DNA of 24,000 nt, taken from NCBI GenBank assembly GCA_963843585.1, contig CAWJLJ010000014.1, forward strand, positions 51,299 through 75,298. The letters are read 5' to 3'. The stretch's first letter is position 1, and every line of letters begins with the position of its first letter. Made by a program: the position numbers and the translations under genes. This document shows positions 9,450 to 23,922 of this stretch, in pieces. The notes beneath the pieces were generated by a model. It ran no database searches. It was given only the letters and a program-made list of their open reading frames with translations, and was not told where the DNA came from. The stretch comes from an uncultured Acidobacteriota bacterium. GTDB lineage: Bacteria > Actinomycetota > Acidimicrobiia > Spongiisociales > ZC4RG35.

Positions 9450-9726
9450 AGAGTGGGATCCACCATGTAGCGGATCATGGCGACGAGAAAACGGCGCGGC
9501 GCCGAGTTGGGTACACGGGCGAAAGATACTCGTGTGTCGAAACACGCAGCCCAGCGAATGTACGGGTCGAAAGTCTCTGCTAGCCAGACCGACTGGGACG
9601 TAGGCTGACTTTGGCTGGACAGACCGCCGTGTCTCGCTACGTCTCACGACGCTCGTTCCACAGCCGCGCCACAGGACTGCCAATCGGTGCCGTTTCCCCT
9701 GGTGACAGGGCTTTGACATTTTTCGC

Positions 9727-9766
9727 AACGAGAAGGTCGCGGGTTCGAATCCCGCCAGCTCCACTA
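9727..9766 (+). ncRNA. tmRNA (ssrA)-like 3' terminus: T-arm plus alanine-type acceptor 3' strand; apparently an orphan fragment
   Basis: GCGGG-TTCGAAT-CCCGC (9739-9755) is followed by CAGCTCC-A (9756-9763). This would pair with a 5' GGGGCTG carrying G3:U70, the tmRNA/tRNA-Ala signature. No GGGGCTG and no tag ORF ending ..AA-stop were found within 450 nt upstream. CTA follows rather than CCA. Confidence 0.45.
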
Positions 9767-9955: not shown

Positions 9956-9983
9956 CATCCGTCCCCCCCGTCTGGTCCGAAGT
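9956..9983 (+). promoter_or_regulatory. Candidate ECF (SigK-like) promoter upstream of the fasciclin lipoprotein gene: CATCC-N17-CGAAGT
   Basis: CATCC at 9956-9960, a 17-nt spacer, and CGAAGT at 9978-9983, 41 nt before ATG 10025. It has the same architecture as the sites at 11183, 14462(-), 17110(-), 17122 and 23633(-). Confidence 0.45.
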
Positions 9984-10024: not shown

Positions 10025-10678
10025 ATGACCCGAAAGATCAGACTGTCCATGCTCATAGCGGTGCTGGCTCTGGTCGTAGCCGCGTGTGGCGATGACTCCG
10101 CGGAGGACACGACCACCACCCAAGCGGATGCAACCACCACCACCGAGGCCGAGATGACATCGACCACCGAGGCGGGGATGACGACGACCACCGAAGCCGA
10201 CGTGACGTCGACCACCGAGGCCATGATGGAAGAGACTGTCCTCGACATCGCCGCAGGCAACGAGGACTTCTCGACGCTCGCGGCCGCGGTGGAAGCCGCC
10301 GGTCTCCAGGATGCGCTCAGCGACCCTGAGGCCACCCTGACCGTATTCGCCCCGACGAATGAAGCCTTCGAAGCCGCCCTGGCGTCGCTCGGGCTGACGG
10401 CCGAAGAGCTCCTGGCCGACACGGAGACCCTGACCGCGATCCTCACCTATCACGTCCTCGGCGACATCGTCACCTCCAGCGACATCGCCGCAGCAGGAAC
10501 AGAGGAGATCCCGGTGGAAACGCTCTCCGGGGAAGAGTTGGTCGTCGTGGTCGGAGATGACGGGACGGTCGGCTTCGTCGATCAAACGGCGACAGTCACC
10601 ATGGCAGACATCGAAGCGTCCAATGGCGTGATCCACGTCATCGATGCAGTTCTCCTCCCACCATCGATGTCAAGCTAA
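10025..10678 (+). CDS. Fasciclin (FAS1) domain lipoprotein with a Thr-rich repeat linker (MPT83/MPT70-like)
   Basis: A signal peptide with lipobox LVVAAC|G, then 4 x 8-aa TTEAxMTx repeats, then a FAS1 domain (DFSTLAAAVEAAGL, TVFAPTNEAF, LTYHV, NGVIHVIDAVLLP). SD ggaaagga lies upstream. Confidence 0.9.
   Translation: MTRKIRLSMLIAVLALVVAACGDDSAEDTTTTQADATTTTEAEMTSTTEAGMTTTTEADVTSTTEAMMEETVLDIAAGNEDFSTLAAAVEAAGLQDALSDPEATLTVFAPTNEAFEAALASLGLTAEELLADTETLTAILTYHVLGDIVTSSDIAAAGTEEIPVETLSGEELVVVVGDDGTVGFVDQTATVTMADIEASNGVIHVIDAVLLPPSMSS
10139..10234 (+). repeat. Four tandem 24-nt coding repeats (ACCACCGAGGC...) inside the fasciclin gene
   Basis: The units are 10139-10162, 10163-10186, 10187-10210 and 10211-10234. 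Each starts with accaccga(g/a)gc and encodes TTEA-x-(M/V)-(T/M/E)-(S/T/E). Confidence 0.85.
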
Positions 10679-10697
10679 GCGACACGCCGTTCCGCAA

Positions 10698-10734
10698 GAA
10701 CAACGGGCCGCGCTCTGAGCGCGGCCCGTTGTTC
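10698..10734 (+). terminator. Strong hairpin terminator after the fasciclin gene
   Basis: GAACAACGGGCCGCGC-tctga-GCGCGGCCCGTTGTTC is a perfect 16-bp stem, 20 nt after the stop. There is no long U-tract. Confidence 0.7.
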
Positions 10735-10798
10735 GCGTGGATGCAGACGACGGATTGCTGGCTCCCCGCGATGGACGCGCGATAGAAACTTCGGACGG

Positions 10799-11049
10799 GA
10801 GAGTGCCGAGAGGGTCACTGCCTTCTCGGGTTCGATGCCTTCGTCTACATCAACGTCATCTGGTTCGGCTGCTGGATCGGCTTCGGCATAGAGAACTACC
10901 CCTACGGTCTCTTGACCATGGTCGTCTCGCTCGAAGCGATCTTCCTCTCCACCTTTGTCCTGATCTCAAACGCGCGAAGTGCCTGCTCAGAAGCCATTCT
11001 CGGTTCCAGTCATTTCACGTTGTTGACCGTTGCATGCGGTCCGCGGTGA
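10799..11049 (+). pseudogene. DUF1003-like membrane protein remnant (frameshifted, no start codon, degenerate C-terminus)
   Basis: One frame gives NFGRESAERVTAFSGSM, and the next gives AFVYINVIWFGCWIGFGIENYPYGLLTMVVSLEAIFLSTFVLIS, the DUF1003 core that is normally followed by QNRQ. The frames join through a missing G at atg(g)cc near 10837. The tracked 120-aa ORF 10737-11099 is in the wrong frame. Confidence 0.45.
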
Positions 11050-11182
11050 TAGATCCGATGGCAGACGGGCCAGCCTGCAAGCTCCAATCGGTCTTTTGAC
11101 TCCCCGGCATCGCGAACCGACAGCCTTCAAGTGACCTCCACGTCTCAGGAATCACGGTTCTCGAGCGATCCGATGCTCTCGA

Positions 11183-11210
11183 CATCCGATCGGACCGGGC
11201 GCAACGAACA
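11183..11210 (+). promoter_or_regulatory. Candidate ECF (SigK-like) promoter of the heliorhodopsin operon: CATCC-N17-CGAACA, 6 nt from the ATG
   Basis: CATCC at 11183-11187, a 17-nt spacer, CGAACA at 11205-11210, then acgtgc and ATG 11217. There is no SD sequence, which fits a leaderless transcript. Confidence 0.55.
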
Positions 11211-11216
11211 ACGTGC

Positions 11217-11996
11217 ATGACGACAACGACAGAGACCATCGTCACGCCCCGGGCCGGTGATCGTCTCCGTGCCTACAACGTCGGCATGGGCGCGCTCCAC
11301 GCCATCCAGGCCTTCTTGGTCCTTTGGCTGGCCAACGGATTCACGCTCCCGGTGATCGCCACATACATGGCGGGGCCTCCTGGCTCCGCTCCGCCCGCGG
11401 TGACACCCCTCTTCGAGGTGAGCATTGCCTGGGGCGTGGCAATTTTCTTGTTCATGTCCGCCGTGGCCCACTTCCTCATCGCCTCGCCCGGCATCTACCA
11501 GTTGTATCGCCAGAACCTGAATCGCCAGCGCAACTATGCCCGTTGGATCGAGTACTCCCTCTCGTCATCGGTCATGGTGGTACTGATCGCCCTTCTGACC
11601 GGGATCGCCGACATCGCAGCCCTGCTTGCCATTGCCGGAGTCAATGCATCGATGATCCTGTTCGGCCTTCTCCAGGAGAAATATGAGACACCAGGCAAGG
11701 CGGTCGGCTGGCTGCCCTTCTGGTTCGGAGTTCTGGCCGGGGCTATTCCTTGGATCGCTATCGCCTGGTACCTGTTCAGCCCCGGCTTCGATTCGAACCC
11801 TCCCGGGTTCGTGTACGGGATCTTCTTCTCCCTCTTTGTCTTCTTCAACGTGTTCGCGGTCGTCATGGTCCTGCAGTACAAGCAGGTCGGTCGGTGGGCG
11901 GACTACAGCTTCGGGGAATCGACCTACATCCTGCTCAGCCTGGTGGCCAAGTCGGCCCTGGCGTGGCAGGTATTCGGAGGAACACTGGCGACATGA
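11217..11996 (+). CDS. Heliorhodopsin (seven-TM retinal protein)
   Basis: 259 aa, collinear with the prototype heliorhodopsin 48C12 as I recall it. Shared segments are RWIEYSLSSSVMVVLIA, GIADIAALLAIAGVNASMILFGLLQEKY, LPFWFG...IPWI, PGFVYGI and YILLSLVAKSALAWQVFGGTL. The Schiff-base Lys (K245), counter-ion Glu (E112) and conserved His (H28, H85) are all present. Confidence 0.92.
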   Translation: MTTTTETIVTPRAGDRLRAYNVGMGALHAIQAFLVLWLANGFTLPVIATYMAGPPGSAPPAVTPLFEVSIAWGVAIFLFMSAVAHFLIASPGIYQLYRQNLNRQRNYARWIEYSLSSSVMVVLIALLTGIADIAALLAIAGVNASMILFGLLQEKYETPGKAVGWLPFWFGVLAGAIPWIAIAWYLFSPGFDSNPPGFVYGIFFSLFVFFNVFAVVMVLQYKQVGRWADYSFGESTYILLSLVAKSALAWQVFGGTLAT

Positions 11997-12466
11997 GACA
12001 AACCACAGGAACCGAAAGACCGGCAGATCACAAGGCGGTCCGCCTCATCGAGCAGAGATGGGTGGAGCGAGCCCAGGACGAAGCATTCATCTACACCGCC
12101 GATTTCTCCAACATCGAGGACTGGGATCCAGGTGTGGTCTCCTCTCGGGGGCTCGGCCATGGGCCCGTCGGTGTCGGCTCGCAATTCGAGCTGGAGGTCG
12201 AGTTCGGCAGTGGCACGATGCCGATGGTCTACGAGATCACGGAATACGAGCCCAGCGATCGGGTAGTCCTGGTCGGCCGGGGTGACAAGCTCGGCGCGGT
12301 CGACGAGATCCGCTTCTCACGGCACGACAACATGACCGTGATCGACTACACCGCCGACCTCACCTTCCTCAACTGGTACAGGCACATCACCCGCTTGATG
12401 GGACCAAGCCTGAAGAAGGTCGGGACCAAGGCTCTCGACGGCCTCGCGGCCGAGCTGGACAGATGA
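11993..12466 (+). CDS. SRPBCC (START/polyketide-cyclase-like) ligand-binding protein
   Basis: 157 aa. Its ATG overlaps the heliorhodopsin stop as ATGA (11993-11996). The size and pattern are typical of SRPBCC (FSNIEDWDPGV..., GSQFELEVEFGSG..., YEITEYEPSDRVVL). Confidence 0.75.
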   Translation: MRQTTGTERPADHKAVRLIEQRWVERAQDEAFIYTADFSNIEDWDPGVVSSRGLGHGPVGVGSQFELEVEFGSGTMPMVYEITEYEPSDRVVLVGRGDKLGAVDEIRFSRHDNMTVIDYTADLTFLNWYRHITRLMGPSLKKVGTKALDGLAAELDR

Positions 12467-13398
12467 ACAAGTTGGGCATCGCATCCTTCACGAACTTGGG
12501 CTACCGGCTCCACTCCCGCCGGTTCTCCCCGGTCGAGGCCGACATGACCGGCAAGACCGTCGTGGTGACGGGATCCACCGGAGGCCTCGGGCTCGAATCA
12601 GCCCGCTCCCTGTCGAGACTGGGAGCCCGGGTGGTGATCGTCGGCCGGAACGAGCAAAAGCTGGCTTCTGCGGCTGAGAGCATCGAGGGCGAGGTGATGG
12701 CGCAGCAGGCCGACCTCAGTCTGCTGGCGGAGGTCCGGCTGCTCTCCGACCGGCTCATCGAGTCAACCCCGAGGATCGACGTCCTGATCAACAACGTGGG
12801 CGTCCTCATGCCCGAGCGCACGGAGACGGACGAGGGCTTGGAGATGTCCTTCGCCACCAATCTCGCCGGCCACTTCCTACTTACCAACCTCCTGCTTCCC
12901 CGACTTGCCGAGTCGAGGCCGGCCAGGGTCATCAACGTGAGCTCCGGCGGCATGTACGCCGCCCGGATCGATCCCACCGACCTCCAGTTCATGCGGCGCC
13001 GCTACACGGGCAAGGCCGCCTATGCCAGCAGCAAGCGGGGGCAGGTCATCCTCACAGAGATGTGGGCCGAGCGCTTCCCGGGACGGAACGTGGTCTTCCA
13101 TTCGATGCACCCGGGTTGGGCCAAGACCGCCGGGGTGGCCGAGTCCTTGCCCGCTTTCAACACAGTGATGCAGCCGCTGTTGCGCACCCCGGCCGAGGGG
13201 GCCGACACCATCATCTGGCTCGCTGTGGCAGAGGAGCCCCGACGTGGGTCTGGCGGGTTCTGGTTCGACCGAGAGGAGGCGCCGACTCATCTCACTGATT
13301 CCACCCAGGAAACAGCGGCGGACCGGGCAGAGCTGTGGACTGAGTTGGCCCGAGTGACCGGGTCCGATCTCCCGGTTGGCACCGCCCACCGGGACTAG
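12463..13398 (+). CDS. Classical short-chain dehydrogenase/reductase, retinol-dehydrogenase / DHRS-like subgroup
   Basis: Its ATG overlaps the previous stop as ATGA (12463-12466). It has TGSTGGLG (the TGxxxGxG NAD(P) motif), NNVG, Ser (VSSGG) and YASSK (YxxxK). The architecture, including the ~27-aa N-terminal extension, resembles RDH11-14/DHRS12-type enzymes. Confidence 0.88.
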   Translation: MNKLGIASFTNLGYRLHSRRFSPVEADMTGKTVVVTGSTGGLGLESARSLSRLGARVVIVGRNEQKLASAAESIEGEVMAQQADLSLLAEVRLLSDRLIESTPRIDVLINNVGVLMPERTETDEGLEMSFATNLAGHFLLTNLLLPRLAESRPARVINVSSGGMYAARIDPTDLQFMRRRYTGKAAYASSKRGQVILTEMWAERFPGRNVVFHSMHPGWAKTAGVAESLPAFNTVMQPLLRTPAEGADTIIWLAVAEEPRRGSGGFWFDREEAPTHLTDSTQETAADRAELWTELARVTGSDLPVGTAHRD

Positions 13399-13432
13399 GC
13401 CGGGTGCGTCGCGACCACATCAGCGAGAGAAC

Positions 13433-14425
13433 TCAGTGGTTAGCGGCCTCCGAACCGGTCACCCAAGCATCGACATCGGCCCACAGGTCGAATAGCCATC
13501 GCAGCCTGGACTTGTTGTCATTGGGAATGGCGCTCCGCGGAACCCGCCAGAACCTCATCTCGACCGTGGTTCCGACCAGGCCGCCCGACCACATGTCCTT
13601 GACCCGGGCAAAGCCCTCCAAACCGCGATGGGCGAGGACGACCACGTCGGCCGCGCTCGCGTCGAGAAGAGCCAGCGTGCCACCCGGCTTCGGGGGAAGC
13701 ACCCGCCGGAAGCCGGCAGCGATCTCCCCGATAGGCCCGCCCTCGTCCACCCAGCGGCGGCTGTACCTGACCCGCTTCTCCTCGCTGTATCGAGTGCCTT
13801 CCGGGTAGATGAGGACGCCCTCATCCGCTGCGAGATTGGTGGCGAGCTCCCTAAGGGCAGCCATCTCGGCCTGCGCCGATCCCCTTCGGTCGATGAAGTA
13901 GTTAGGGAGTCGGTTGCCACCGATGTCCAACGCGGGGTCGATCAAGAGTTCCTTCTTCAGGACGTAGCGCAGCTTGATCCCGTGAGGCTTGACCACGTAG
14001 CGACCGGGGAGCATCGTGTCGATCAGCGACGCGTGGCGGGATAGAAGGAGTATCGGCCCAGGCGGGATGGCGGACATCCCCTCGTCGATGAAGGTCAGGC
14101 CGAAGCTCATCCGCAAGGCGTCGAAGTTCCAGTCGAGCCAGACCTGTTGCGCCCGGTAAGTCCAGTCGATCACCCTGTGCCTGGGAAGCAACCCGACGAT
14201 CGCCAGGGCGAGGATGGCCCAAGCCTCGCCAAGCAGGTAGTACCAGGCGAAAGCGCCCGTCCGCAGCGCCATCGCCGGCGTACGCGCATTCACCCATCGA
14301 GCAGCATCGACCAACGCCCCGAGGGGCAGAAGGATCGGGAGCAGGGTCGTGAACAACACGAGACCCGCATATACGGCCGAGATCGTGATCAGCCGCCTGG
14401 TTGTGTTGGCCAGCAATGATCCCAT
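13433..14425 (-). CDS. PlsC-family (lyso)phospholipid acyltransferase, membrane-anchored
   Basis: 330 aa with N-terminal TM helices, the HX4D motif (SRHASLID) and the EGTR motif (IYPEGTRY). Confidence 0.85.
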   Translation of the reverse strand: MGSLLANTTRRLITISAVYAGLVLFTTLLPILLPLGALVDAARWVNARTPAMALRTGAFAWYYLLGEAWAILALAIVGLLPRHRVIDWTYRAQQVWLDWNFDALRMSFGLTFIDEGMSAIPPGPILLLSRHASLIDTMLPGRYVVKPHGIKLRYVLKKELLIDPALDIGGNRLPNYFIDRRGSAQAEMAALRELATNLAADEGVLIYPEGTRYSEEKRVRYSRRWVDEGGPIGEIAAGFRRVLPPKPGGTLALLDASAADVVVLAHRGLEGFARVKDMWSGGLVGTTVEMRFWRVPRSAIPNDNKSRLRWLFDLWADVDAWVTGSEAANH

Positions 14426-14433
14426 CCGCTGTC

Positions 14434-14462
14434 AATTCGGCGCCGAACAACTAACTGGATGG
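14434..14462 (-). promoter_or_regulatory. Candidate ECF (SigK-like) promoter of the acyltransferase gene: CCATCC-N17-CGAATT, 8 nt from the ATG
   Basis: The minus strand reads CCATCC-agttagttgttcggcgc-CGAATT-gacagcgg-ATG. It contains the 12-bp perfect palindrome TTCGGCGCCGAA. Confidence 0.6.
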
Positions 14463-14512: not shown

Positions 14513-15721
14513 GTGCAGCTGATGCCGTCCACCATCTTCGTCATCTGGTTTGGAGCCGCCTTTGTTCTGACGGTCAACGCCCTGCGCCGCCCGGTGCAAC
14601 CAGGGAAGGGGATCCCACCCCCGTGGCTGCCCGCCATGATCGTCTCTGAGCTGGCGCCGTGGCTCCTCCTCGTGAGGATGTTGGGAGTCGTGGCGTTCAT
14701 CTGGATCGGGGTCCTGGAGTCGGCGGCAGGCCAGGTGGGGCTGGCGCTCTTCATCCTGTCCGAGCTGGGTTTGCTGATCTTGATCGGGCGAACGCTCGCC
14801 TCCGCCCGCGCCACCGGCCACAACCCCTCCTCGTGGTCACTGTTTCGGATCTGGGACCCCCTGCCCGAGGGAGTCATTGTGATTCCGGAAGTGCACTATT
14901 GGGATGGCCTGACCCTCGATATCTACCGGCGCGCGGAGTCGACTGCGGCGCCCGCCTTGATCTATGTCCACCCGGGCTCTTGGATGAGAGGGCGCCCTGG
15001 GCGCCAGGCCAGGGCGATGTTCCATCTTCTTGCCGTCTCCGGATGGGTGGTCCTCGATATCCGCTACCCACTCTCACCCGCAGCGACGTTCCCGGAGCAT
15101 CTCATCGGCGTGAAACGTGCCATTGCATGGGCCAGGACTGGAGGTGGCGAATACGGGATCGACCCCAATCTGGTCGGCATCTCGGGCGGCTCGTCGGGCG
15201 CCCATCTTGCTGCCCTCGCCGCGCTCACCTGGGACCGGACAGAGCTTCAGCCCGGCTTCGAGGACGCGGATACCAGCGTCATCGGATGCGTGCCCTTCTA
15301 CGGGATCTACGACCTGCTGGTGAGGAACCCGACACGGTTCGACTGGCCCTTCATCGCGCGGTACGTTCTCAAGGCCGACAAGCAAGAGGCCCCAGACCTC
15401 TATCGACTGGGATCGCCCATCGATCAGGCCCGCGGTGACACGCCCCCCTTCCTCGTGATCCACGGAGAGTTCGACTCCGTCGTCCTACCGGAGGAATCAC
15501 GCCACTTTGTGGCCGCCCTCGAGAGGGTCGGGGGGCGAGTCGAGTATCACGAGATCCTGGGAGCCCAGCATGGCTTCGATGCCGTGGCATCGCTGCGCTC
15601 CAGAGCCGTGGGGCGAATGGCCGCCGAGTGGCTCGGAGGGATCGTGTCGGAGATATCCAATAGAGGTCATCCGTCTCCAGAAGCGACTCTGAATGCAACG
15701 CCGGAGGCCCATCAGGCCTGA
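14513..15721 (+). CDS. Membrane-anchored alpha/beta-hydrolase (esterase/lipase, fold-3 / ICME-like)
   Basis: About 4 N-terminal TM helices, then LDIYRR..PALIYVHPGSW, the nucleophile elbow GGSSG, and the Asp/His candidates HGEFDSVV and GAQHGFD. The start may be GTG 14513 or ATG 14522. Confidence 0.85.
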   Translation: MQLMPSTIFVIWFGAAFVLTVNALRRPVQPGKGIPPPWLPAMIVSELAPWLLLVRMLGVVAFIWIGVLESAAGQVGLALFILSELGLLILIGRTLASARATGHNPSSWSLFRIWDPLPEGVIVIPEVHYWDGLTLDIYRRAESTAAPALIYVHPGSWMRGRPGRQARAMFHLLAVSGWVVLDIRYPLSPAATFPEHLIGVKRAIAWARTGGGEYGIDPNLVGISGGSSGAHLAALAALTWDRTELQPGFEDADTSVIGCVPFYGIYDLLVRNPTRFDWPFIARYVLKADKQEAPDLYRLGSPIDQARGDTPPFLVIHGEFDSVVLPEESRHFVAALERVGGRVEYHEILGAQHGFDAVASLRSRAVGRMAAEWLGGIVSEISNRGHPSPEATLNATPEAHQA

Positions 15722-16443
15722 GTGGCCACCGCCACGACATCGCCTTCACTGATGACCACTCCGCCGGCAACCTCCCGGGTCAGGGCGAACCCCGAAACGT
15801 CACCGGTCCACGTGAAGGTCGAGGCGCGAGGCTCGTTGCCTAGTACGCCACCGGAAATCACCTGCTCGTCGGTGGTGATCACCCACAGCTGATAGGTGCG
15901 CTGAGGCATCAGGGGCTCGAGATCCTCGGTGGGAACGACGAAGCCGTGGCCATCCTCGGTGAGAATCACCTGCGCAACGGAGGAGCCGTCGACCAGGAAA
16001 TCGCCGACGTAGGCACCGCTGCTGGAGGCCGCTTGCTCGGCCGCGGCGATCACTGCCGAGTCGCCCGTCAGATCGTGGAGTAACGACCTCTGAGCCAGGG
16101 CTATACCGGCGAAGACAAGGGCGGCCACGGCGGCGATTGCGGTCAGCAAGGTCACAGCTCTGGTTCTCCGTGGCTGCCCTTCTTCGAGATCGATGACCTC
16201 GGCGGCCCGGCCGAGTGGGATGTCCGCCCCGTTTCCGATAGCCGAGGCGATCCTGTCCCATCCATGGGTCGGCGTGGGTTCGTCCGGGACCAATTTCGAC
16301 GTCACGGCCGAGTACCGGGCCAGTTCGCGAAGACAGGCGTCACATGAGTGGAGGTGAGTCATCACCGCCTGGAGCTCATTCCCCTCCAGGCTGTCGAGGG
16401 CATAGAGCGGGACCAGTTCGTGGAGGAGGCTGTGGTTCGTCAT
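15712..16443 (-). CDS. rskA: Anti-sigma factor, RskA-like, with an N-terminal zinc-binding (ZAS) HxxxCxxC motif
   Basis: Its start overlaps the sigma gene stop as ATGA. It has H-LHS-C-DA-C (ZAS motif), one central TM helix (LLTAIAAVAALVFAGIALA), and an extracytoplasmic RskA-type domain (RTYQLWVITTDEQVISGGVL). Confidence 0.82.
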   Translation of the reverse strand: MTNHSLLHELVPLYALDSLEGNELQAVMTHLHSCDACLRELARYSAVTSKLVPDEPTPTHGWDRIASAIGNGADIPLGRAAEVIDLEEGQPRRTRAVTLLTAIAAVAALVFAGIALAQRSLLHDLTGDSAVIAAAEQAASSSGAYVGDFLVDGSSVAQVILTEDGHGFVVPTEDLEPLMPQRTYQLWVITTDEQVISGGVLGNEPRASTFTWTGDVSGFALTREVAGGVVISEGDVVAVATQA

Positions 16444-16988
16444 GCTGTCGCTCCCGACAGCGAGACCGCCAGCTTCTTCATGCCGCTGCGGATTCGGCTC
16501 TTCACAGTTCCCTCGGGCTCGCCCAGCCTCTTGGCCACCTCCACGTAGCTGAGCCCACCGAAATAGGCCAGAGAGATCGCCTCCCGTTCGCTTTCGGCGA
16601 GATCGTCGAGGGCCTTGCGCACCAACTCGGACAGGTTCCGGGTCCAGACCTCGTCAGCGACGTCGTAATGATCCGGATCTGGCGGCTTCTCTTCCCTACG
16701 GGCTCGGGCCACCTCGGATCTCACAATGTCCACTGCCCTGCGATGAGCGATGGTGAGCAGGAAGGTGCGCAATGAGCCGCGCCCGGGGTCGTACTTCTCC
16801 GGCGCGTTCCAGAAACCCACGAACGTGTCCTGCACGACATCATCTGCCAAAGCCTCGTCTCTCAACACCCGGAGAGCGATGGCCTTGACTGCGCCGCCGT
16901 ACTGCTGGAAGAGAGCTTCGAGCGCGGATTGGTCGCGGCTGGCAACTCTCTCCGCAAGAAGGGCATCCGGGGTGTTCGAGTCGCTCAT
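16440..16988 (-). CDS. sigK: ECF sigma-70 family factor, SigK-like
   Basis: Region 2 is DDVVQDTFVGFW and region 4 is LAYFGGLSYVEVAKRLGEPEGTVKSRIRSGMKKL. It is co-transcribed with the rskA-like gene. The preferred start is ATG 16988 (MSDSNTPD...). An upstream in-frame ATG at 17072 lies 10 nt after the candidate -10 and could be a leaderless start. Confidence 0.85.
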   Translation of the reverse strand: MSDSNTPDALLAERVASRDQSALEALFQQYGGAVKAIALRVLRDEALADDVVQDTFVGFWNAPEKYDPGRGSLRTFLLTIAHRRAVDIVRSEVARARREEKPPDPDHYDVADEVWTRNLSELVRKALDDLAESEREAISLAYFGGLSYVEVAKRLGEPEGTVKSRIRSGMKKLAVSLSGATA

Positions 16989-17082
16989 CGACCTGCCGGC
17001 GGACACATGAACCGGGGATGTTAGGTAGGCCCCATTCCGGTAACGCCCTGGCTGCAAGCGAGCTGACTCCATCTACAACACC

Positions 17083-17110
17083 TATTCGTCACCGCCCCGA
17101 GCCCTGGATG
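17083..17110 (-). promoter_or_regulatory. Candidate autoregulatory ECF promoter of sigK-rskA: CATCC-N17-CGAATA
   Basis: The minus strand reads tCATCC-agggctcggggcggtga-CGAATA. It lies back-to-back with the plus-strand copy at 17122-17150, with the two -35 elements 11 nt apart. Confidence 0.6.
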
Positions 17111-17121
17111 AGACAGCCGAC

Positions 17122-17150
17122 CCATCCGGTCTGCTGTTCGGCGACGAATA
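17122..17150 (+). promoter_or_regulatory. Candidate ECF promoter of the oxidoreductase-DUF1365-CFA synthase operon: CCATCC-N17-CGAATA, 6 nt from the ATG
   Basis: CCATCC-ggtctgctgttcggcga-CGAATA-cgcggc-ATG(17157). There is no SD, and it shares GTTCGGCG(A/C)CGAAT with the sites at 14434 and 23605. Confidence 0.62.
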
Positions 17151-17156
17151 CGCGGC

Positions 17157-18467
17157 ATGGGACAGAGAATCGCGATCGTCGGAACGGGCATCTCCGGTCT
17201 CGGCGCCGCCTGGGCCTTGCATCGGGACAATGACATCACGGTCTTCGAGGCGGACAATCGGATAGGCGGCCATTCGAATACCGTCGATGTCGAGACCCCC
17301 GATGGTCCTCTGGCGGTCGACACCGGATTCATCGTTTACAACGAGGTCACCTACCCCAACCTGACCCGCCTCTTCTCGTCGCTCGGCGTATCCACCGAAA
17401 TGAGTGACATGTCGTTTGCCTTCTCCCTGGACCGCCAGTTCGAGTACGGGGCGAGCCTGAGTGGGGTTTTGGCCGAGCCGGGCAACCTCCTCAGCCCGAG
17501 GTTCCTCCGGATGCTTCGAGACATAAGTCGATTCCGCCGCATCGGGACCATGCTGGAGCCGGCGGGCGACGAGAACATCGGCGAACTCCTCGAACGGTAC
17601 GGCTTCTCCCAAGGCTTCCTCGATGACTACCTCTACCCCATGACCGGTGCGATCTGGTCGGCTCAGCGATCGAATATCAGCATGTTCCCCGCTGCGTCGA
17701 TTCTCCGCTTTCTGGCCAACCACGGATTGATCGAGATCGTGGGGCGGCCCAGGTGGCGGACTGTGACCGGTGGGAGCCGGAGCTATGTCAATCGACTTGT
17801 GAGGCCCTTTGCCGACCGAATCAGAACGAACTCGCCCGTGAATCGCATCGTCCGCCTCGGCGGTGAGGTGCTGGTCGAGTCCAATGGGCAGACGCAGTCG
17901 TTCGAACAGATCATCTTCGCCACCCACCCCGATCAGGCTCTGGCCATCCTCGGTGAGGACGCCACCGATACCGAGGGCGCCGTACTCGGTGCCATGCGGT
18001 ATGAGTCGAACGTCGCCGTCCTCCATAGCGACTCGAGCCTGATGCCCCGGAACCGCAGGGTTTGGTCCAGCTGGAATGCGATGGCGGAGGAAGCCGGCCG
18101 CCGTCACCAGGTGGCCTCGGTGACCTACTGGATGAACCGCCTCCAGAACCTCAACCCCTCGTACCCCTTGTTCGTCTCCCTCAATCCGTTGCGGGAGCCG
18201 GATCCAGGCCAGGTTCACGCTCGTTTCGCATACGCCCACCCACAGTTCGATCTCGAATCGGTGGCGGCACAACAGGGTCTCGCCGCGATCCAGGGCCTGA
18301 GCAACACCTGGTTCGCCGGGGCCTACCTCGGCTACGGCTTCCACGAGGACGGGCTCCAGTCAGGTCTCAACGTGGCAGCGGCCCTCGGCTCCCCGGTGCC
18401 ATGGCACGGCACTTTCGAACCAGTTAGCTCGGCCCCGTCCTTCACGGGGAGGGTGGTGGTCCCTTGA
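17157..18467 (+). CDS. FAD/NAD(P)-binding amine-oxidase-family oxidoreductase (Rv0449c-like)
   Basis: 436 aa with an N-terminal Rossmann motif RIAIVGTGISGLGAAW...VFEA..RIGGH. The size and context match the flavin oxidoreductase that accompanies DUF1365 and CFA-synthase genes. Confidence 0.85.
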   Translation: MGQRIAIVGTGISGLGAAWALHRDNDITVFEADNRIGGHSNTVDVETPDGPLAVDTGFIVYNEVTYPNLTRLFSSLGVSTEMSDMSFAFSLDRQFEYGASLSGVLAEPGNLLSPRFLRMLRDISRFRRIGTMLEPAGDENIGELLERYGFSQGFLDDYLYPMTGAIWSAQRSNISMFPAASILRFLANHGLIEIVGRPRWRTVTGGSRSYVNRLVRPFADRIRTNSPVNRIVRLGGEVLVESNGQTQSFEQIIFATHPDQALAILGEDATDTEGAVLGAMRYESNVAVLHSDSSLMPRNRRVWSSWNAMAEEAGRRHQVASVTYWMNRLQNLNPSYPLFVSLNPLREPDPGQVHARFAYAHPQFDLESVAAQQGLAAIQGLSNTWFAGAYLGYGFHEDGLQSGLNVAAALGSPVPWHGTFEPVSSAPSFTGRVVVP

Positions 18468-19246
18468 GGCCGTTACGGTCTGCCCTCTACCAGGGCCGGG
18501 TGCGCCACACCCGGCTCCAGCCCTTTCATCACGATTTCGAGTACCGGGTCTTCTACGGGCTATTCGATATCGACGAGCTCGACTACCTCGACCGGGGACT
18601 CAGGCTCTTCTCAGTCGGAAGACGCAACCTGGCGAGCTTCTACCCCCAGGACCATGGCCCCGTCGACGGGAGCTCTCTTCGAGCCTGGGCCGAAGACGTC
18701 CTCGCAGAGGCGGGTGTCGACATCGACGGCGGAAGGATCGAGCTGCTCGCCTTCCCCCGGATCCTCGGCTACGCCTTCAACCCGTTGAGCGTCTGGTACT
18801 GCTACGGGAGCGAAGGCAATCTCAAAGGAGTCCTCCACGAGGTGCGGAACACGTTCGGTGACCGCCACGTGTACGTGGTGCCCGTCAATGATGAGACGGC
18901 GTACCGACACAGCTTCGCCAAGGCGATGCACGTATCCCCTTTCAATCCGATGGAGCAGACCTACCACTTCACGGTCAACCGGCCCGGGAAGCGGCTTCAA
19001 GTGGCGATCGAGCAGACCGACGAAAGGGGCAAGGTGTTCCGGGCGGGGATGAGGCTCTCACGGATTCCCTTGACCGACCGCAATCTGCTCAGGGTCTTCT
19101 TCACTCACCCCCTGGTGACGATGAAGGTCATCGCAGGGATCCACTGGCAAGCCCTGCGGCTCTGGCTCAAGGGCGCCACCTATCGGAAACGCCCTCGGCC
19201 CCCCGCCGATAGCATCACGATCGTGGACCCGAGCATGGTCGGATGA
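18464..19246 (+). CDS. DUF1365-family protein
   Basis: 260 aa. Its TTG start overlaps the previous stop as TTGA. The motifs SALYQGRVRHTR..P..H.F.YRVFY and FPRILGYAFNPLSVWYCY are typical of DUF1365. Confidence 0.8.
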   Translation: MRPLRSALYQGRVRHTRLQPFHHDFEYRVFYGLFDIDELDYLDRGLRLFSVGRRNLASFYPQDHGPVDGSSLRAWAEDVLAEAGVDIDGGRIELLAFPRILGYAFNPLSVWYCYGSEGNLKGVLHEVRNTFGDRHVYVVPVNDETAYRHSFAKAMHVSPFNPMEQTYHFTVNRPGKRLQVAIEQTDERGKVFRAGMRLSRIPLTDRNLLRVFFTHPLVTMKVIAGIHWQALRLWLKGATYRKRPRPPADSITIVDPSMVG

Positions 19247-20409
19247 AGGCCCGGGAGCGGCTAGGTCTCCGCGTCTTCTCCTGGCTGGCACGTGCAGGGA
19301 GCATCCAGGTGACGCTTCCCACCGGGGAGACGGTATCGATCGGCCACGGGTCGCCCGGCGCCGACGTCGAGATCACGGACTATTCGGCCGTGGCCGACAT
19401 CCTCCGCACCGGCCTCACCGGATTCGCGGAGGCGCATATGGACGGGCGGATCGAGACCTCGGACCTTCCCGCCCTGCTCCGCTGGGGCGTAGCCAACCAA
19501 GCCGCCTGGTTCGAGCACCCCCTGGCCCGTCTGACGCTGCCCTTCCGGAGGCTGTGGCAGCGGATCCGTCCCGAGAGACGGCACCCGCGAGTGCGAAGCA
19601 TGAACGATCATTACAACCTCGGAAACGACTTCTACGAGAAGTGGCTCGACGAAACGATGACCTACTCCTCCGCCCGTTTCCTCGACCCCGACCAACCGCT
19701 GTCGGGAGCCCAGATGAACAAGTACCGGCTGATCGCGGACAAGGCTGGCTTGGCGCCCGGGATGCGGGTACTCGAGATCGGATGCGGTTGGGGAGGATTC
19801 GCCGAATACGCAGCCTCGGAAAGAGGCTGTGAGGTCACCGCAATCACCTTATCCAAGGAGCAGGCGTCCTACGCCGAGAAGCGGATCGCCGAGCGCGGCC
19901 TGGCCGACAAGGTCGAGATCCGGCTCGCCGACTTCAGGGACATCACCGGCGAATTTGACGCAGTCGTCTCCATCGAGATGATCGAATCGGTCGACGAGAC
20001 CCATTGGCCGGCCCTGTTCGAGATGATCGCCGACCGCCTCAAGCCAGAGGCGCGGGCTGCGATGCAGATCATCACGATCAGAGACGACGAGTGGGAGCGC
20101 TACCGATCCAGGGCCGACTTCATACAGCAGTACATCTTCCCCGGGGGACAGATCCCGGCGCCCAAGGTCCTCAAGGCGTTCGCCGGCAAGGCCCGTCTGG
20201 ACGTGGAGCAAATCGAGACCTTCGGCCTCGACTACGCGCGAACCCTGGCGGCTTGGCGGGACCGCTTCCTGGAGGCGTGGCCGGTGCTCCAGGTTGAACA
20301 CGACCTCGACGAGCGTTTCCGCCGCATGTGGGAGCTGTACCTCGCCCTTTGCGAGGCGGGGTTCCGCATGGGGCGGATCAACGTCGAGCAGTGGGTATTC
20401 GCCCGCTGA
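19243..20409 (+). CDS. Cyclopropane-fatty-acyl-phospholipid synthase-family SAM-dependent methyltransferase
   Basis: Its ATG overlaps the previous stop as ATGA. It has HYNLGNDFYEKWLDETMTYSSA, the SAM motif VLEIGCGWGGFA, DAVVSIEMIE, FIQQYIFPGG and YLALCEAGF. Confidence 0.88.
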   Translation: MKARERLGLRVFSWLARAGSIQVTLPTGETVSIGHGSPGADVEITDYSAVADILRTGLTGFAEAHMDGRIETSDLPALLRWGVANQAAWFEHPLARLTLPFRRLWQRIRPERRHPRVRSMNDHYNLGNDFYEKWLDETMTYSSARFLDPDQPLSGAQMNKYRLIADKAGLAPGMRVLEIGCGWGGFAEYAASERGCEVTAITLSKEQASYAEKRIAERGLADKVEIRLADFRDITGEFDAVVSIEMIESVDETHWPALFEMIADRLKPEARAAMQIITIRDDEWERYRSRADFIQQYIFPGGQIPAPKVLKAFAGKARLDVEQIETFGLDYARTLAAWRDRFLEAWPVLQVEHDLDERFRRMWELYLALCEAGFRMGRINVEQWVFAR

Positions 20410-20534: not shown

Positions 20535-20939
20535 ATGCGCAAGCTGATGCTTCTCATGGCCGTGATGGTGGTGGCGATACTGCCGGCCACGGCCGCAATG
20601 GCCCAGTCGGACGAGGGTCAGGTCATCGTGGTTCACGGTGTTCCCGATCTGGACGTCGACGTGTACGTCAACGGTGAGCTCACCCTCGAGGGCTTTCAGT
20701 TCGGCGATGTAGCCGGTCCGCTGGACCTGCCCGCCGGCACCTACGAGATCGAGATATTCGCCGCCCTCTACCCGAAGGAAGAGCTGCCCCTGGACGCTAT
20801 CTTCTCCAAGGAGGGGCCTCCGGTGCTGACACTCATTACGTGCGGCGGCGGCTTTGATCCAGGCGTCGCTCGCTACGACAGCAACGTCGTCGTCTACGCC
20901 ACGCCAGCTGTCGACCTCCCGGCTTCTTTGATCGGGTGA
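20535..20939 (+). CDS. Secreted chimeric protein: signal peptide plus DUF4397-like N-terminal half fused to a sortase (class F-like) C-terminal tail
   Basis: Signal peptide MRKLMLLMAVMVVAILPATAAMA. The segment VIVVHGVPDLDVDVYVNG...LPAGTYEIEI is DUF4397-like. The segment LPLDAIFSKEGPPVLTLITCGGGFDPGVARYDSNVVVYATP is a sortase C-terminus with the TLxTC Cys and a downstream Arg, but there is no His-bearing sortase core. Confidence 0.6.
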   Translation: MRKLMLLMAVMVVAILPATAAMAQSDEGQVIVVHGVPDLDVDVYVNGELTLEGFQFGDVAGPLDLPAGTYEIEIFAALYPKEELPLDAIFSKEGPPVLTLITCGGGFDPGVARYDSNVVVYATPAVDLPASLIG

Positions 20940-21985
20940 TGGTGTCCTTCTCACGCTCGACCACAGGTAGCCTCCACGCTTTCGTAACGGAGCGAAAAGT
21001 GGATGAAAGCAGCCTCAGATCTGCGCGGCTCGGAGTCACCGCGGCCGCCCTTTCGGGGGACTCCGGCGGGCTCTACAACATCGTTGCCCGCCTCATGGAT
21101 GAGGGGGTTCCTCTCGACTCGCTGCTCTTCGACCTCCTCCTTCCCACTGAAAGAGATGTCGGATCGCGATGGCAAAGCGGGGATTACCTGGTCTCGGAGG
21201 AACACACCGCGACGGCCACAGTCGAGACCGTCGTCGCGCTCCTTGCGGGGTCGTTGGACCAACCAGAGGACGGCCTCCATGTCGTGGTTGCCTCAGCTGA
21301 AGGCGACTCTCACTCCTTGGCAGGCCGGGCCGTGGTCGCCTATCTACTCTTCAGCGGATTCCGGACCACCTTCCTCGGCGCCAACGTGCTCGCAACCGAC
21401 CTGCGGGAGTTCCTCGCCAGCGAGCAGCCCGACGCGATGATCATCTCCTGCACGATGACCAACCATCTCATCGGAGCCAGGGCAGTGATCAGCCAGAGCC
21501 ACTCCGCAGACGTGCCTGTACTCGCGGGAGGGCGGGCGTTCGGCGGGACCGGGGCGTGGGCGACCACGCTCGGAGCCGACGCCTGGGCGTCGCACCCGAG
21601 AGAGATCCCAGGCGTCCTACAGACCTGGGTGCCAGACGTAAGAGCGTCCGAGAGCCGGGCTCGTAACCCTTCGGACGACCTGCTGAAGCTGATCGAACGA
21701 CGCACCTCGGTTCTCGCTCGAGCACAGGAGGATCTGGAGCGACGTCTCGGAGAAACGCCTGGCCCCCGCCTGCGAGACGAGCTCGCCCTGCTTCTCGGCG
21801 CTGTCGAAGCGTCTTTGCTGGTAGGCGACAACGAGGTGGTCGTCGAGGCTCTCAAGTGGCAAAGAGCGACCCTCCAGGCCCACGGGCACGGCGACTCGGG
21901 CCCACTGACGGAGGCCGTCATTGCAGGCTTGCAGCCGGTATCCCTCGAAGCCGCCGAGGCTCTTCGCTCCGCCCTGTCCAGTTAG
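20936..21985 (+). CDS. Stand-alone cobalamin (B12)-binding protein, CarH/AerR-like, lacking a DNA-binding domain
   Basis: A four-helix-bundle region carries W79-x9-E89-H90 (RWQSGDYLVSEEH). A Rossmann-like B12-binding domain carries DSHSLA (the DxHxxG-type lower-ligand His126) and VLAGG. A ~130-aa helical C-terminal extension follows. The start is uncertain: GTG 20936 or ATG 20939 (coupled to the upstream stop), or GTG 20999 with ggag upstream. Confidence 0.75.
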   Translation: MMVSFSRSTTGSLHAFVTERKVDESSLRSARLGVTAAALSGDSGGLYNIVARLMDEGVPLDSLLFDLLLPTERDVGSRWQSGDYLVSEEHTATATVETVVALLAGSLDQPEDGLHVVVASAEGDSHSLAGRAVVAYLLFSGFRTTFLGANVLATDLREFLASEQPDAMIISCTMTNHLIGARAVISQSHSADVPVLAGGRAFGGTGAWATTLGADAWASHPREIPGVLQTWVPDVRASESRARNPSDDLLKLIERRTSVLARAQEDLERRLGETPGPRLRDELALLLGAVEASLLVGDNEVVVEALKWQRATLQAHGHGDSGPLTEAVIAGLQPVSLEAAEALRSALSS

Positions 21986-22063: not shown

Positions 22064-23596
22064 TTAGATCGGTGGCTTCGGGCGTCGGCCGGCCACCTCG
22101 ACAATGCGACGGGCCATCGGGCCGAAAACCATCGAATGGAACGGCCAGAGCAGATACCAGTAGAGGCGACCTGCCAGTCCGCGTGGGGCGAAGTGAGCGG
22201 TCTGGATCAGACTGGTATGGCCACTCTTGCTTTCGACTTCAAACTCGAGCCAGGCCTCGCCAGGCAATCTCATCTCGGCGACCAGCAGGAGGCGTCGGTT
22301 GTCTTCGAGGTCGGCCACCCGCCAGAAGTCGAGTGTGTCACCTCGCACCAAAGCAGTGCGGGGTCCCGCATTTCGCTGGAGGCCGACACCGCCCACCACA
22401 CGGTCGATCAGACCTCGAAACCACCAGGCCCAACCGGCGGCGTAGTAGCCAACTTCGCCTCCTATCCGTGTCACTGCCCAGTAGACGTCCGCTGCCGGAG
22501 CTGCCGTTTCCACCACCTTGCGGTCCCGCAGCCAGCGGGCACCGGCCCAGGCCGGATCGGTTGGCAGGCTCACCGCCGGTTGCTCCACAGCCTCGTGCCA
22601 TCGGGTTTCATCGGTGTTCCCCTCCACCCTTTCCAGGGCGTCAGAAACGGCCTCGCGATACGGGCTGAGGGGACGCTCGACAAACTCTGTTGCCGCGTTC
22701 TCGGTGACAACGACCTCGGTGATGAGGCTGTCTATGAGGGTGCGCGCGATTCGGGTGGGCACTGCGGTGACGAGACCCACCCATCGAGAGGAGAGCGAGG
22801 GGGAGAACATCGGCACTGGCAAGATCAGGCGGTGCCGAAGACCGGCCTCTTCGGCGTAGATCTGCATCATGTCCCTGTAGGTGAGAACGTCGGGACCGCC
22901 CACCTCCAGCATCTGATGATCGGCCAGGTCGTGATCGAGCAGTCCGACAAGAACTGCCAATACATCCCTGGCAGCGATGGGCTGGCATCGAGTCTGAACC
23001 CAACGAGGCGTGATCATCACTGGAAGCACCTCGGTCAGATGTCGAAGCATTTCGAACGAGACCGAGCCCGACCCGATGATCACTGCCGCCCTGACCTCAC
23101 TGAGTGCGATCGGACCGGCGGCGAGAACCCGACCTACCTCTTGACGGCTGGCCAGATGGCCGGAGAGGTTGGTCGAGCCTCCCAGACCACCCATGTAGAT
23201 GATCCTCTGCACGCCCTGACGTTCCGCCGCCCGACGGAAGTTCTCGGCGGCTTGACGGTCACGGGTGGCAAACCCCTCGCCGCCGTCCATCGAGTGAATC
23301 AGGTAGTAGGCGGTGTCAATCCCCTCCAGAGCGGCGTCCAACGATGCCCGCTCCAGAGCATCCGCCACCGCCACCTCCACCTGCTTATGCCAGGGGTGGC
23401 CGCTGAGACCCTCGGCGCTCCGCACCATGCAACGCACCTGATAGCCCGCCGCCAGGAGTTGGGGCACCAGGCGGCCCCCCAGGTAGCCACTGGCTCCGGT
23501 CACCAGCAATGTGGATCCGGAAGTGCGTGCGGGGTCAGCCGACGATGGCTCCGCTGATGCCCTCTCGTACTGTTGCAAAGCATCCTCGTTCGTCAT
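22064..23596 (-). CDS. Atypical SDR / NmrA-like NAD(P)-binding domain fused to a DUF2867 domain
   Basis: 510 aa with LLVTGASGYLGGRL (Rossmann fold) and an extended-SDR-like N-terminal half. The C-terminal ~150 aa (WRVADLE...LLLVAEMRLPGEAWLEFEV...) are typical of DUF2867. Confidence 0.82.
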   Translation of the reverse strand: MTNEDALQQYERASAEPSSADPARTSGSTLLVTGASGYLGGRLVPQLLAAGYQVRCMVRSAEGLSGHPWHKQVEVAVADALERASLDAALEGIDTAYYLIHSMDGGEGFATRDRQAAENFRRAAERQGVQRIIYMGGLGGSTNLSGHLASRQEVGRVLAAGPIALSEVRAAVIIGSGSVSFEMLRHLTEVLPVMITPRWVQTRCQPIAARDVLAVLVGLLDHDLADHQMLEVGGPDVLTYRDMMQIYAEEAGLRHRLILPVPMFSPSLSSRWVGLVTAVPTRIARTLIDSLITEVVVTENAATEFVERPLSPYREAVSDALERVEGNTDETRWHEAVEQPAVSLPTDPAWAGARWLRDRKVVETAAPAADVYWAVTRIGGEVGYYAAGWAWWFRGLIDRVVGGVGLQRNAGPRTALVRGDTLDFWRVADLEDNRRLLLVAEMRLPGEAWLEFEVESKSGHTSLIQTAHFAPRGLAGRLYWYLLWPFHSMVFGPMARRIVEVAGRRPKPPI

Positions 23597-23604
23597 CCAC
23601 TAGT

Positions 23605-23633
23605 GATTCGGCGCCGAACCTTGTCGTGGATTG
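23605..23633 (-). promoter_or_regulatory. Candidate ECF promoter of the SDR-DUF2867 gene: CAATCC-N17-CGAATC, 8 nt from the ATG
   Basis: The minus strand reads CAATCC-acgacaaggttcggcgc-CGAATC-actagtgg-ATG(23596). It shares the 14-mer ATTCGGCGCCGAAC with the acyltransferase promoter. Confidence 0.55.
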
Positions 23634-23781: not shown

Positions 23782-23922
23782 TCGGCGCCCTCGGCAGGAT
23801 TCGAACCTGCGACACCCGGTTTAGGAAACCTGCTCTGTATTTGGGCCTCCCAACACCCGAAAACGCCAATAAACATAGGGTTTTCGCGTTCTCTAAGGTT
23901 GGCGCGTTCCGGTGCTCAGTTT
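23782..23922 (-). repeat. 141-bp repeat copy 3 containing the tRNA-Arg(CCU)-like element (minus strand, about 23786-23864)
   Basis: A direct repeat of 5153-5293 with about 7 differences. Three of them are pairing-preserving changes in one hairpin. Confidence 0.8.

Follow-up and report, generated by a model that had tools for sequence, protein, structure and literature searches.

The cellular role of heliorhodopsins (HeR) is largely open, and the handful of cases known so far are isolated ones in which an HeR is paired with a neighbouring enzyme. What, then, is an HeR doing at the head of an operon whose next two genes code for an SRPBCC protein and a short-chain dehydrogenase/reductase (SDR)? 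This arrangement is found in a stretch of 24,000 nucleotides, hereafter the window, from an uncultured bacterium (assembly GCA_963843585.1, contig CAWJLJ010000014.1, positions 51,299 to 75,298), for which a first-pass annotation had proposed a retinoid handling module, with the SRPBCC protein and the SDR as obligate partners of the HeR. The reading favoured here, with a probability of roughly 0.6, is a different one: the three genes would form a leaderless operon driven by an extracytoplasmic function (ECF) sigma factor, within a regulon for photo-oxidative membrane protection, and not a module for handling retinal.

HeR-SRPBCC-SDR is a genuine, conserved and translationally coupled operon. 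Stop and start codons overlap as ATGA at 11993-11996 and at 12463-12466, exactly where the first-pass annotation had placed these overlaps, and the translational coupling read from them was right; the three family assignments are likewise confirmed by profile searches. The first protein matches the Heliorhodopsin family PF18761 with E=6e-101 and 337 bits (cut-off 26.7), the NCBIfam HeR equivalog NF038020 with 326.6 bits (cut-off 100) and the heliorhodopsin 48C12 (PDB 6SU3) with E=1e-76. In the 48C12 alignment H28, H85, E112 and K245 of the window protein correspond to H23, H80, E107 and K241, and the Schiff-base lysine, the Glu counterion and the two conserved histidines are all present, as had been claimed. 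By family models and key residues it is a heliorhodopsin. The SRPBCC protein matches Polyketide_cyc2 (PF10604) with E=2.7e-11 and 44.4 bits (cut-off 27.4), and its AlphaFold model (pLDDT 87.7) shows a beta-sheet and a long C-terminal helix. Foldseek matches to this model comprise bacterial SRPBCC proteins, CoxG and abscisic acid receptors, with TM-scores up to 0.78; since only generic helix-grip relatives, and no ligand-specific one, were returned by the fold search, no substrate can be inferred for this protein, and its profile gave marginal matches only (E about 0.1) against PDB sequences. The SDR matches adh_short with E=3.5e-32 and has the complete cofactor and catalytic motif set of a classical SDR, namely TGxxxGxG (TGSTGGLG) at 36, NNVG at 110, VSS near 160 and YASSK at 187. 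The sole PDB match at E<=1e-20 is 3RD5, an uncharacterised mycobacterial SDR, and the best NCBIfam matches are unnamed oxidoreductase subfamilies, below their own cut-offs. Homologues of both the SRPBCC protein and the SDR are named "DHRS12" by their sources, several of the SRPBCC ones by JGI.

Position 11183 is where a promoter-like motif begins, and not an open reading frame (ORF). This motif, CATCC-N17-CGAAC, stands directly before the HeR gene (Table 1), and the earlier proposal of a single upstream promoter candidate was correct; a scan of 10600-13700 for sigma-70-type promoters gave no sites. The exact form CATCC-N17-CGAAT occurs at three sites in the window versus 0.46 expected, a number that 0 of 100 shuffles reached, and exact CATCC-N17-CGAAY at four versus 0.19 expected. 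When up to one mismatch is allowed there are eight sites (1.8 expected), six of which lie 7-42 nt 5' of gene starts in the correct orientation: those of the HeR gene and of the fasciclin, acyltransferase, sigma, ufaD-like and NmrA/DUF2867 genes of the surrounding island. Between the divergent sigma and ufaD-like genes, which are 85 bp apart, stand two CATCC-N17-CGAAT copies, one facing each gene. N16 variants of the motif, arranged as palindromic divergent pairs, point towards the esterase gene.

The motif is conserved well beyond this window. In a survey of 160 fetched loci, in which the region from -60 to +30 of the start was taken for each HeR gene, it was found before 45 of the 49 evaluable HeRs with at least 70% identity to the window HeR, wherever these are placed, whereas none of the 46 HeRs at 60-69% identity has it; the background is 2.9% of random 180-nt windows. 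A comparison of 34 distinct sites shows next to no variation at positions 1-6 and 19-27 and a variable spacer at positions 7-18, conservation being confined to the -35 and -10 elements. The distance between motif and ATG is exactly 7 nt in nearly every HeR case, and this spacing implies a leaderless mRNA. The motif also precedes ufaD (14 of 24), the ECF sigma gene (11 of 31) and acyltransferase homologues (19 of 32), and the copy before the fasciclin gene is kept in related loci (L004-L006, L027, L028, L086; loci carry our own numbers). It precedes no UfaO, CMAS or RskA gene, all of which are operon-internal, and only one of 89 SDR genes (L068); before photocobilin genes it is usually missing, and the photocobilin gene of the window has no ECF motif upstream. 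Where no HeR gene lies upstream, the motif stands directly before SRPBCC (e.g. L010, L014-17, L022, L048, L060), and in loci with the trio it is absent from that place. We infer that the motif is read by the local SigK-like sigma factor, since this motif stands before the sigma operon, is ECF-like in architecture and co-occurs with the sigma gene.

The SRPBCC protein and the SDR are themselves split halves of one two-domain, DHRS12-like enzyme, of which SRPBCC is the N-terminal half. The SRPBCC alignment was scanned against one genome per GTDB species, which gave 80 loci; these were annotated by tblastn with 13 window proteins, and 72 had enough sequence for adjacency counts. The SDR gene lies directly 3' of SRPBCC in 60 of the 72, the exceptions being mostly truncated, frameshifted or inverted copies; the Acidimicrobiia genes share an ATGA or GTGA overlap. 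A single ORF contains both in 14 loci (Acidobacteriota, Gamma- and Betaproteobacteria, Desulfobacteraceae and one close relative); the Desulfobacterium fusion (L074) was verified as a protein of 480 aa with Polyketide_cyc2 at 1-131 and adh_short at 198-396. Among 1.8 billion representative proteins searched, 1138 relatives were found at E<=1e-10, and 10 of 10 long database representatives tested (382-484 aa) have both domains. The window proteins align collinearly, end to end, with the DHRS12-type fusions of Proteobacteria, Acidobacteriota and Desulfobacterota (~464-484 aa), with 40-50% identity for SRPBCC; residues 5-298 of the SDR are 55% identical to the C-terminal half of the fusion, linker included, versus 27% to an unrelated SDR, with its first ~28 residues standing where the fused homologues have their interdomain linker. 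What sets the Acidimicrobiia enzyme apart from these fusions is its division into two genes, with an HeR gene in front in one clade. No fusion was found among the 120 closest SDR homologues, fusions occurring only among more distant ones. The START-like domain probably presents a hydrophobic substrate, a carbonyl or alcohol that may well derive from membrane lipids.

One of the 80 loci, on contig CAWKEI010000013.1 of the metagenome-assembled genome (MAG) MFD08497.bin.1.135, is 100% identical to the window, and SRPBCC homologues (57-92% identity) come mostly from Acidimicrobiia MAGs. The source MAG is labelled "uncultured Acidobacteriota", and the labels of nearly all close relatives are Acidimicrobiia. 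Two contigs of MFD08497.bin.1.135 (L004, L005) carry copies of the locus that are 96% identical, which suggests a strain mixture or mis-binning. In three loci (L046, L053, L056; about +540 to +1200 from SRPBCC) a more distant SRPBCC paralogue has a second ECF sigma/RskA-like pair (46%/32% identity), and not an SDR, directly behind it, another linkage of SRPBCC with ECF genes.

Does this enzyme serve the HeR by handling its chromophore? In such a module the SDR would interconvert retinol and retinal and the SRPBCC protein would carry the retinoid to or from the HeR, supplying or recycling chromophore. That HeR is tightly coupled to the pair by ATGA in many lineages, and directly to the SDR in one lineage, speaks for this proposal, as do the SRPBCC fold, that of a hydrophobic-ligand binder, and the presence of SDR genes among ten frequent HeR operon neighbours (PMC11109279). 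Moreover, no carotenoid-cleavage, crt or other retinal-synthesis family was matched among the window ORFs scanned, in agreement with the first-pass annotation, and a salvage route would then make sense. However, this enzyme, whether split or fused, occurs widely where there is no HeR, among others in diderm phyla, in Proteobacteria and in Desulfobacteraceae, and its distribution does not follow that of rhodopsins. The trio coupling does recur, but an HeR gene lies directly 5' of the pair in only 13 of the 72 loci, and for this reason the pair is not an obligate HeR partner, contrary to what had been supposed. Without HeR the pair has its own ECF-type promoter and tracks the ufaD/DUF1365/CMAS trio, which adjoins it in Acidimicrobiia, in a betaproteobacterium and in Desulfobacteraceae, and HeRs of the same clade occupy other positions. 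The window SDR shares the classical motifs and the broad SDR neighbourhood of the retinol dehydrogenases (RDH/DHRS), and the label "retinol-dehydrogenase-like" holds at this superfamily level; it fails at the level of orthology, as there is no specific similarity to characterised retinol dehydrogenases, the nearest structure belongs to an uncharacterised protein and the family is named DHRS12. The retinoid proposal is left without specific support and is regarded as very improbable.

The places that HeR genes occupy bear on the remaining explanations. Metagenome contigs were scanned with the HeR alignment, which gave about 30 evaluable HeRs with an identity of 70% or more to that of the window. 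SRPBCC-SDR directly follows 17 of these, and none below 70%; the synteny of the trio in many related genomes, which the first-pass annotation had left to be surveyed, is thus observed, and at about 60% the trio is the commonest arrangement in the clade. Other HeRs of the clade stand immediately after a photocobilin gene, in about ten loci in which the latter is divergent from the ECF/anti-sigma operon (e.g. L011, L012, L015, L030, L032, L048, L060, L112, L115, L118), before ufaD (L118, L119), beside anti-sigma or acyltransferase genes (L090, L095), or alone. In L087 (2261-3917) the SRPBCC gene is lost and HeR is overlapped directly by the SDR gene. Motif-bearing HeRs are also found beside a glycosidase and a disulfide reductase (L102) and beside an MFS transporter and an arginase (L098). 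In a neighbour-joining tree the HeR clade at or above 70% identity is monophyletic, with the gene arrangements interleaved, and sister HeRs with near-identical promoter spacers are differently placed, for example L019/L089 versus L015. Because of these interleaved arrangements and differently placed sisters, the HeR is described here as a mobile promoter-plus-gene cassette; it behaves as one that moved within the island and stayed in the regulon, insertion before SRPBCC-SDR apparently being the commonest outcome. Separately, the SDR breaks off about 6 codons from its start in L008 (2185-2900) and present as fragments only in L032 and L041, and in L103 a DNA photolyase gene (1175-2515, minus strand) lies between HeR and the ECF sigma/photocobilin genes.

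Such mobility could mean adjacency and nothing else: the HeR cassette would have hopped within a stress island, landed before SRPBCC-SDR and replaced its promoter, without a functional link. The HeR that keeps its own motif anywhere, the SRPBCC that has one only when no HeR is upstream, the interleaving of trio and photocobilin-HeR arrangements on the HeR tree and the motif-bearing HeRs beside unrelated genes in L102 and L098 all accord with this explanation. It sits badly with the 21 of the 80 loci in which an HeR gene lies no more than 10 kb from the pair, versus roughly 0.7% expected (our own estimate for one gene in a ~3-Mb genome), with an HeR that stays in the same regulon, near photoreceptor, sigma or lipid genes, and with an ATGA coupling that was re-created or kept in divergent lineages, and it is held to be improbable.

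At the other extreme, the HeR could be a light-gated allosteric regulator of SRPBCC-SDR by direct contact, with ECF co-regulation secondary. Every functionally characterised bacterial HeR in the literature searched binds a product of its own operon (PMC9529153, PMC9769723, PMC11109279), the start/stop overlaps of the trio, the majority arrangement in the clade, favour co-production, and in L087 the SDR was kept beside the HeR despite the loss of SRPBCC. Yet about 40% of the HeRs of the clade are not beside the pair while being equally conserved (about 71-79% identity) and under the same promoter, the differently placed sisters L019/L089 and L015 have near-identical promoters, and contact between HeR and enzyme is hypothetical. 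Regulation by direct contact is on the whole unlikely, though it deserves to be taken seriously.

The regulon favoured here is laid out in an island of roughly 14 kb in an Acidimicrobiia-like genome, in which the HeR operon is one of at least six transcription units (Table 1). The anti-sigma gene overlaps that of the ECF sigma factor, and its product scores 52.1 bits with RskA_C (cut-off 29.4) and has the zinc-binding anti-sigma (ZAS) motif HLHSCDAC at residue 30. Against PDB the best match of the sigma factor is Mycobacterium tuberculosis SigK (4NQW, 3e-28), followed by RpoE of Rhodobacter sphaeroides. Amino_oxidase, DUF1365 (281 bits) and CMAS (276 bits) proteins are encoded together in the next operon, a gene content that suggests a role in furan fatty acid synthesis: UfaD (an amine-oxidase-like desaturase), UfaO (DUF1365) and UfaM (a CMAS-type methylase) make these lipids in R. 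sphaeroides and Rhodopseudomonas palustris (PMC7380195, PMC5507510). The photocobilin-like protein matches SasPcob (8J2W), a standalone photocobilin of the B12/bilin photoreceptor kind, with E=5e-34 over residues 29-319; its Wx9EH motif, WQSGDYLVSEEH at residue 79, is kept in 19 of the 19 homologues that cover the site, and the domain scan found no MerR or other DNA-binding domain. Light could reach the sigma circuit through this protein, a candidate for its input.

Table 1. Features of the HeR operon and of the island around it (positions in the window)
Feature	Position	Strand	Remarks
Promoter-like motif, one mismatch (CGAAG)	9956..9982	+	42 nt before fasciclin gene
Fasciclin-domain lipoprotein	10025..10678	+	same domain as mycobacterial MPT70/MPT83
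ECF (SigK-like) promoter-like motif CATCC-N17-CGAAC	11183..11209	+	ends 7 nt before HeR ATG
HeR gene, 259 aa	11217..11996	+	H28, H85, E112, K245 intact
SRPBCC (Polyketide_cyc2) gene, 157 aa from ATG at 11993	11993..12466	+	ATGA overlap with HeR
SDR gene, classical, DHRS12-like, 311 aa	12463..13398	+	ATGA overlap with SRPBCC
Acyltransferase, PlsC-type domain	13433..14425	-	convergent with SDR
CATCC-N16-CGAAC site facing BD-FAE esterase gene	14423..14448	+	overlaps putative acyltransferase promoter via palindrome TTCGGCGCCGAA
Exact motif before acyltransferase gene	14435-14461	-	
BD-FAE / LipQ-like membrane esterase	14513..15721	+	
RskA-like anti-sigma factor	15712..16443	-	ZAS motif H30xxxC34xxC37, one transmembrane segment (99-117), RskA_C
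ECF sigma factor, SigK-like	16440..17072	-	nearest solved relative M. tuberculosis SigK
Exact motif upstream of ECF sigma gene	17084-17110	-	
Exact motif	17123..17149	+	ends 7 nt before ufaD-like gene
ufaD-like (Amino_oxidase) - ufaO-like (DUF1365) - ufaM-like (CMAS) operon	17157..20409	+	overlapping genes 17157-18467, 18464-19246, 19243-20409
Standalone photocobilin-like B12 photoreceptor	20936..21985	+	B12-binding domains and C-terminal region, Wx9EH motif
NmrA/NAD_binding_10 + DUF2867 protein	22064..23596	-	
One-mismatch motif	23606-23632	-	9 nt before NmrA/DUF2867 gene

According to the proposed regulon, stress, probably light-linked and oxidative, would free the sigma factor from its membrane ZAS anti-sigma factor, and RNA polymerase with this sigma factor would initiate at the CATCC-N17-CGAAY promoters, 7 nt before start codons, yielding leaderless mRNAs. 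These predicted promoters would drive HeR-SRPBCC-SDR, the ufaD-ufaO-ufaM genes for a lipid modification of the furan fatty acid type, the acyltransferase and the esterase, as well as the fasciclin lipoprotein, the NmrA/DUF2867 protein and the sigma operon itself. SRPBCC-SDR would act as an NAD(P)-dependent oxidoreductase on a hydrophobic, lipid-derived carbonyl or alcohol. The HeR would be an output of the regulon, made with these enzymes; by the precedent of the HeR-glutamine synthetase, HeR-photolyase and HeR-ABC transporter pairs, it most likely tunes a co-expressed partner in light. The second suggestion of the first-pass annotation, a lipid-directed pair under the control of the photoreceptor, fits better than its retinoid module; the part that stands is the link to the photoreceptor, which is one of co-regulation and not of control by the HeR.

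Several points weigh against this regulon. The model is wholly computational, and both promoter function and the reading of the motif by the local sigma factor are predicted from position and conservation, the motif having been defined from the window and related loci alone. The best NCBIfam model for the sigma factor is SigK at 164.8 bits, below the cut-off of 226, and the protein has no cysteines, so that the disulfide switch of M. tuberculosis SigK is absent; it is called SigK-like, and not SigK, for these two reasons. We infer the trigger, light-linked oxidative stress, by analogy with Rhodobacter and M. kansasii and from the photoreceptor and photolyase neighbours. In R. sphaeroides, deletion of RSP1087 or RSP1088, from the operon that holds ufaD and ufaO, left furan fatty acids unchanged (PMC7380195), which would bear on the window pair if these genes are its orthologues. 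Finally, the prevalence of the trio could reflect a specific relationship between HeR and enzyme, and the direct HeR-SDR coupling of L087 could mean a relationship beyond co-regulation.

A more specific version may be envisaged, a two-photoreceptor circuit for membrane photoprotection in non-phototrophic soil Actinomycetota. Light input through the photocobilin would release the sigma factor from the anti-sigma factor that resembles RskA, and the HeR, a regulon member made from a leaderless mRNA with the split SRPBCC-SDR, would bind that enzyme or another regulon product and make lipid-carbonyl or furan-fatty-acid chemistry depend on illumination. This circuit is speculative and rather doubtful; if true, no HeR before this one would have been placed within a defined transcriptional stress response, and a standalone photocobilin would have its first physiological role.

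Some further observations concern the island and its flanks. The palindrome of the overlapping sites in Table 1 forms the -10 region on both strands in two overlapping divergent promoter-like pairs, one at 14423-14461 facing the acyltransferase and esterase genes and one at 23594-23632 facing the NmrA-DUF2867 gene and a plus-strand side without evident ORF near the window end. A homologue of the NmrA/DUF2867 protein lies directly 3' of HeR in L011, L012 and L112, a second dehydrogenase-like protein tied to the island. The fasciclin gene contains four 24-nt Thr-rich tandem repeats at 10100-10228 and is followed by a hairpin at 10691-10741 (25-bp arms, 88% complementary, 1-nt loop), which probably sets it apart from the HeR unit. 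A 45-aa ORF (MTMVVSLEAIFLSTFVLISNARS...) at 10912-11049 on the plus strand, within the 540-bp gap that precedes HeR, looks like the remnant of a membrane-protein gene. Three terminator-like matches within the HeR coding sequence were disregarded, their number being near the shuffle rate (3 versus 1.7). Immediately upstream of the island, at 5847-9764 on the minus strand, an ORF codes for an adenylate/guanylate cyclase - AAA_16 ATPase - TPR signalling protein of ~1300 aa; its N-terminal extension as listed runs into a tRNA-like fragment, and the protein probably starts further in. In the window, Rfam at gathering thresholds and ARAGORN gave no matches, while sub-threshold fragments resembling tRNA/tmRNA 3' ends flank the island at 9728-9766 (plus strand) and 23786-23846 (minus strand), the values being E=0.0011 for the tmRNA 3' end and 20.2 bits versus a gathering threshold of 29 for the tRNA, for which ARAGORN found none. 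A tRNA-borne integrative island was considered on this ground and dropped, the fragments being sub-threshold, in opposite orientation and not repeats of each other; they are only a hint.

Among known systems, the mycobacterial SigK-RskA regulon (ECF19; PMC7509140, PMC4105308) comprises sigK-rskA with Rv0449c-Rv0446c and MPT70/MPT83. In M. tuberculosis sigK is autoregulated from the Rv0449c promoter, the fasciclin proteins MPT70/83 belong to its regulon, and conservation of SigK sites across Actinobacteria has been described (PMC7509140); in M. kansasii the homologues of MPT70/83 are light-induced (PMC9861118). The window resembles this regulon in having SigK as the nearest solved relative of its sigma factor, an RskA_C anti-sigma factor, a fasciclin lipoprotein with the shared motif, the motif before the amine-oxidase (ufaD-like) and sigma genes, and DUF1365 and CMAS genes beside the sigma pair. 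It differs in its Acidimicrobiia-like class, in a sigma factor below the SigK cut-off and without redox cysteines, and in an island that adds HeR, SRPBCC-SDR, the acyltransferase, the esterase and the NmrA/DUF2867 protein.

The sigmaE-ChrR singlet-oxygen regulon of R. sphaeroides likewise joins an ECF sigma factor and a ZAS anti-sigma factor with ufaD, ufaO and CMAS-type genes and an SDR of unknown role, its RSP1091-1087 operon coding for UfaD, UfaO, a CMAS-like protein, a small protein and the SDR (PMC7380195, PMC5507510). A photolyase also belongs to this regulon, and the related locus L103 has one, as described above; the order of the ufa-like genes in the window is that of R. palustris RPA2571-2569 (PMC7380195). 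In contrast, the window anti-sigma factor is of the RskA type and not of the ChrR cupin type, its SDR is a DHRS12-like protein of 311 aa with an SRPBCC partner whereas RSP1087 has 245 aa, and the sigmaE-ChrR regulon contains neither rhodopsin nor photocobilin.

As for the photocobilin, the window protein matches the standalone SasPcob (PMC10979010) and has the light-sensing Wx9EH; its neighbours here, an ECF sigma/anti-sigma pair and an HeR, do not appear in the passages of PMC10979010 examined. Standalone photocobilins may thereby gain a candidate output, an ECF sigma circuit. Two-component and redox genes have been reported near HeRs (PMC8612252). The literature searched contains no mention of an SRPBCC protein in an HeR operon, of an SRPBCC-SDR fusion, of an ECF promoter on HeR, or of a link between HeR and either ufa genes or photocobilins.

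The closest comparison is with the HeR-partner operons, AbHeR-glutamine synthetase, TfHeR-photolyase and OcHeR-OmrDE ABC transporter, in which, as here, the HeR gene is co-transcribed and overlapping with an enzyme gene. Cho et al. (2024) already list the "SDR family" as a recurrent category of HeR operon neighbours (PMC11109279), while SRPBCC does not occur in the text or available supplementary files of that survey. The window operon differs from these in its neighbour, a split SRPBCC-SDR, in an ECF-type promoter common to the whole island, and in an HeR-enzyme binding that is hypothetical. SDR genes as frequent HeR neighbours were already known; what this HeR-partner operon adds is its probable place inside a regulon of the SigK/sigmaE type. 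A whole HeR clade with a conserved ECF-type promoter offers a testable regulatory context for HeRs: the regulon would predict when the HeR is made (under ECF-activating, probably photo-oxidative, stress), with which proteins and from which start site, and it places beside the HeR one widespread, uncharacterised two-domain enzyme, SRPBCC-SDR, that is linked to ufa genes across phyla.

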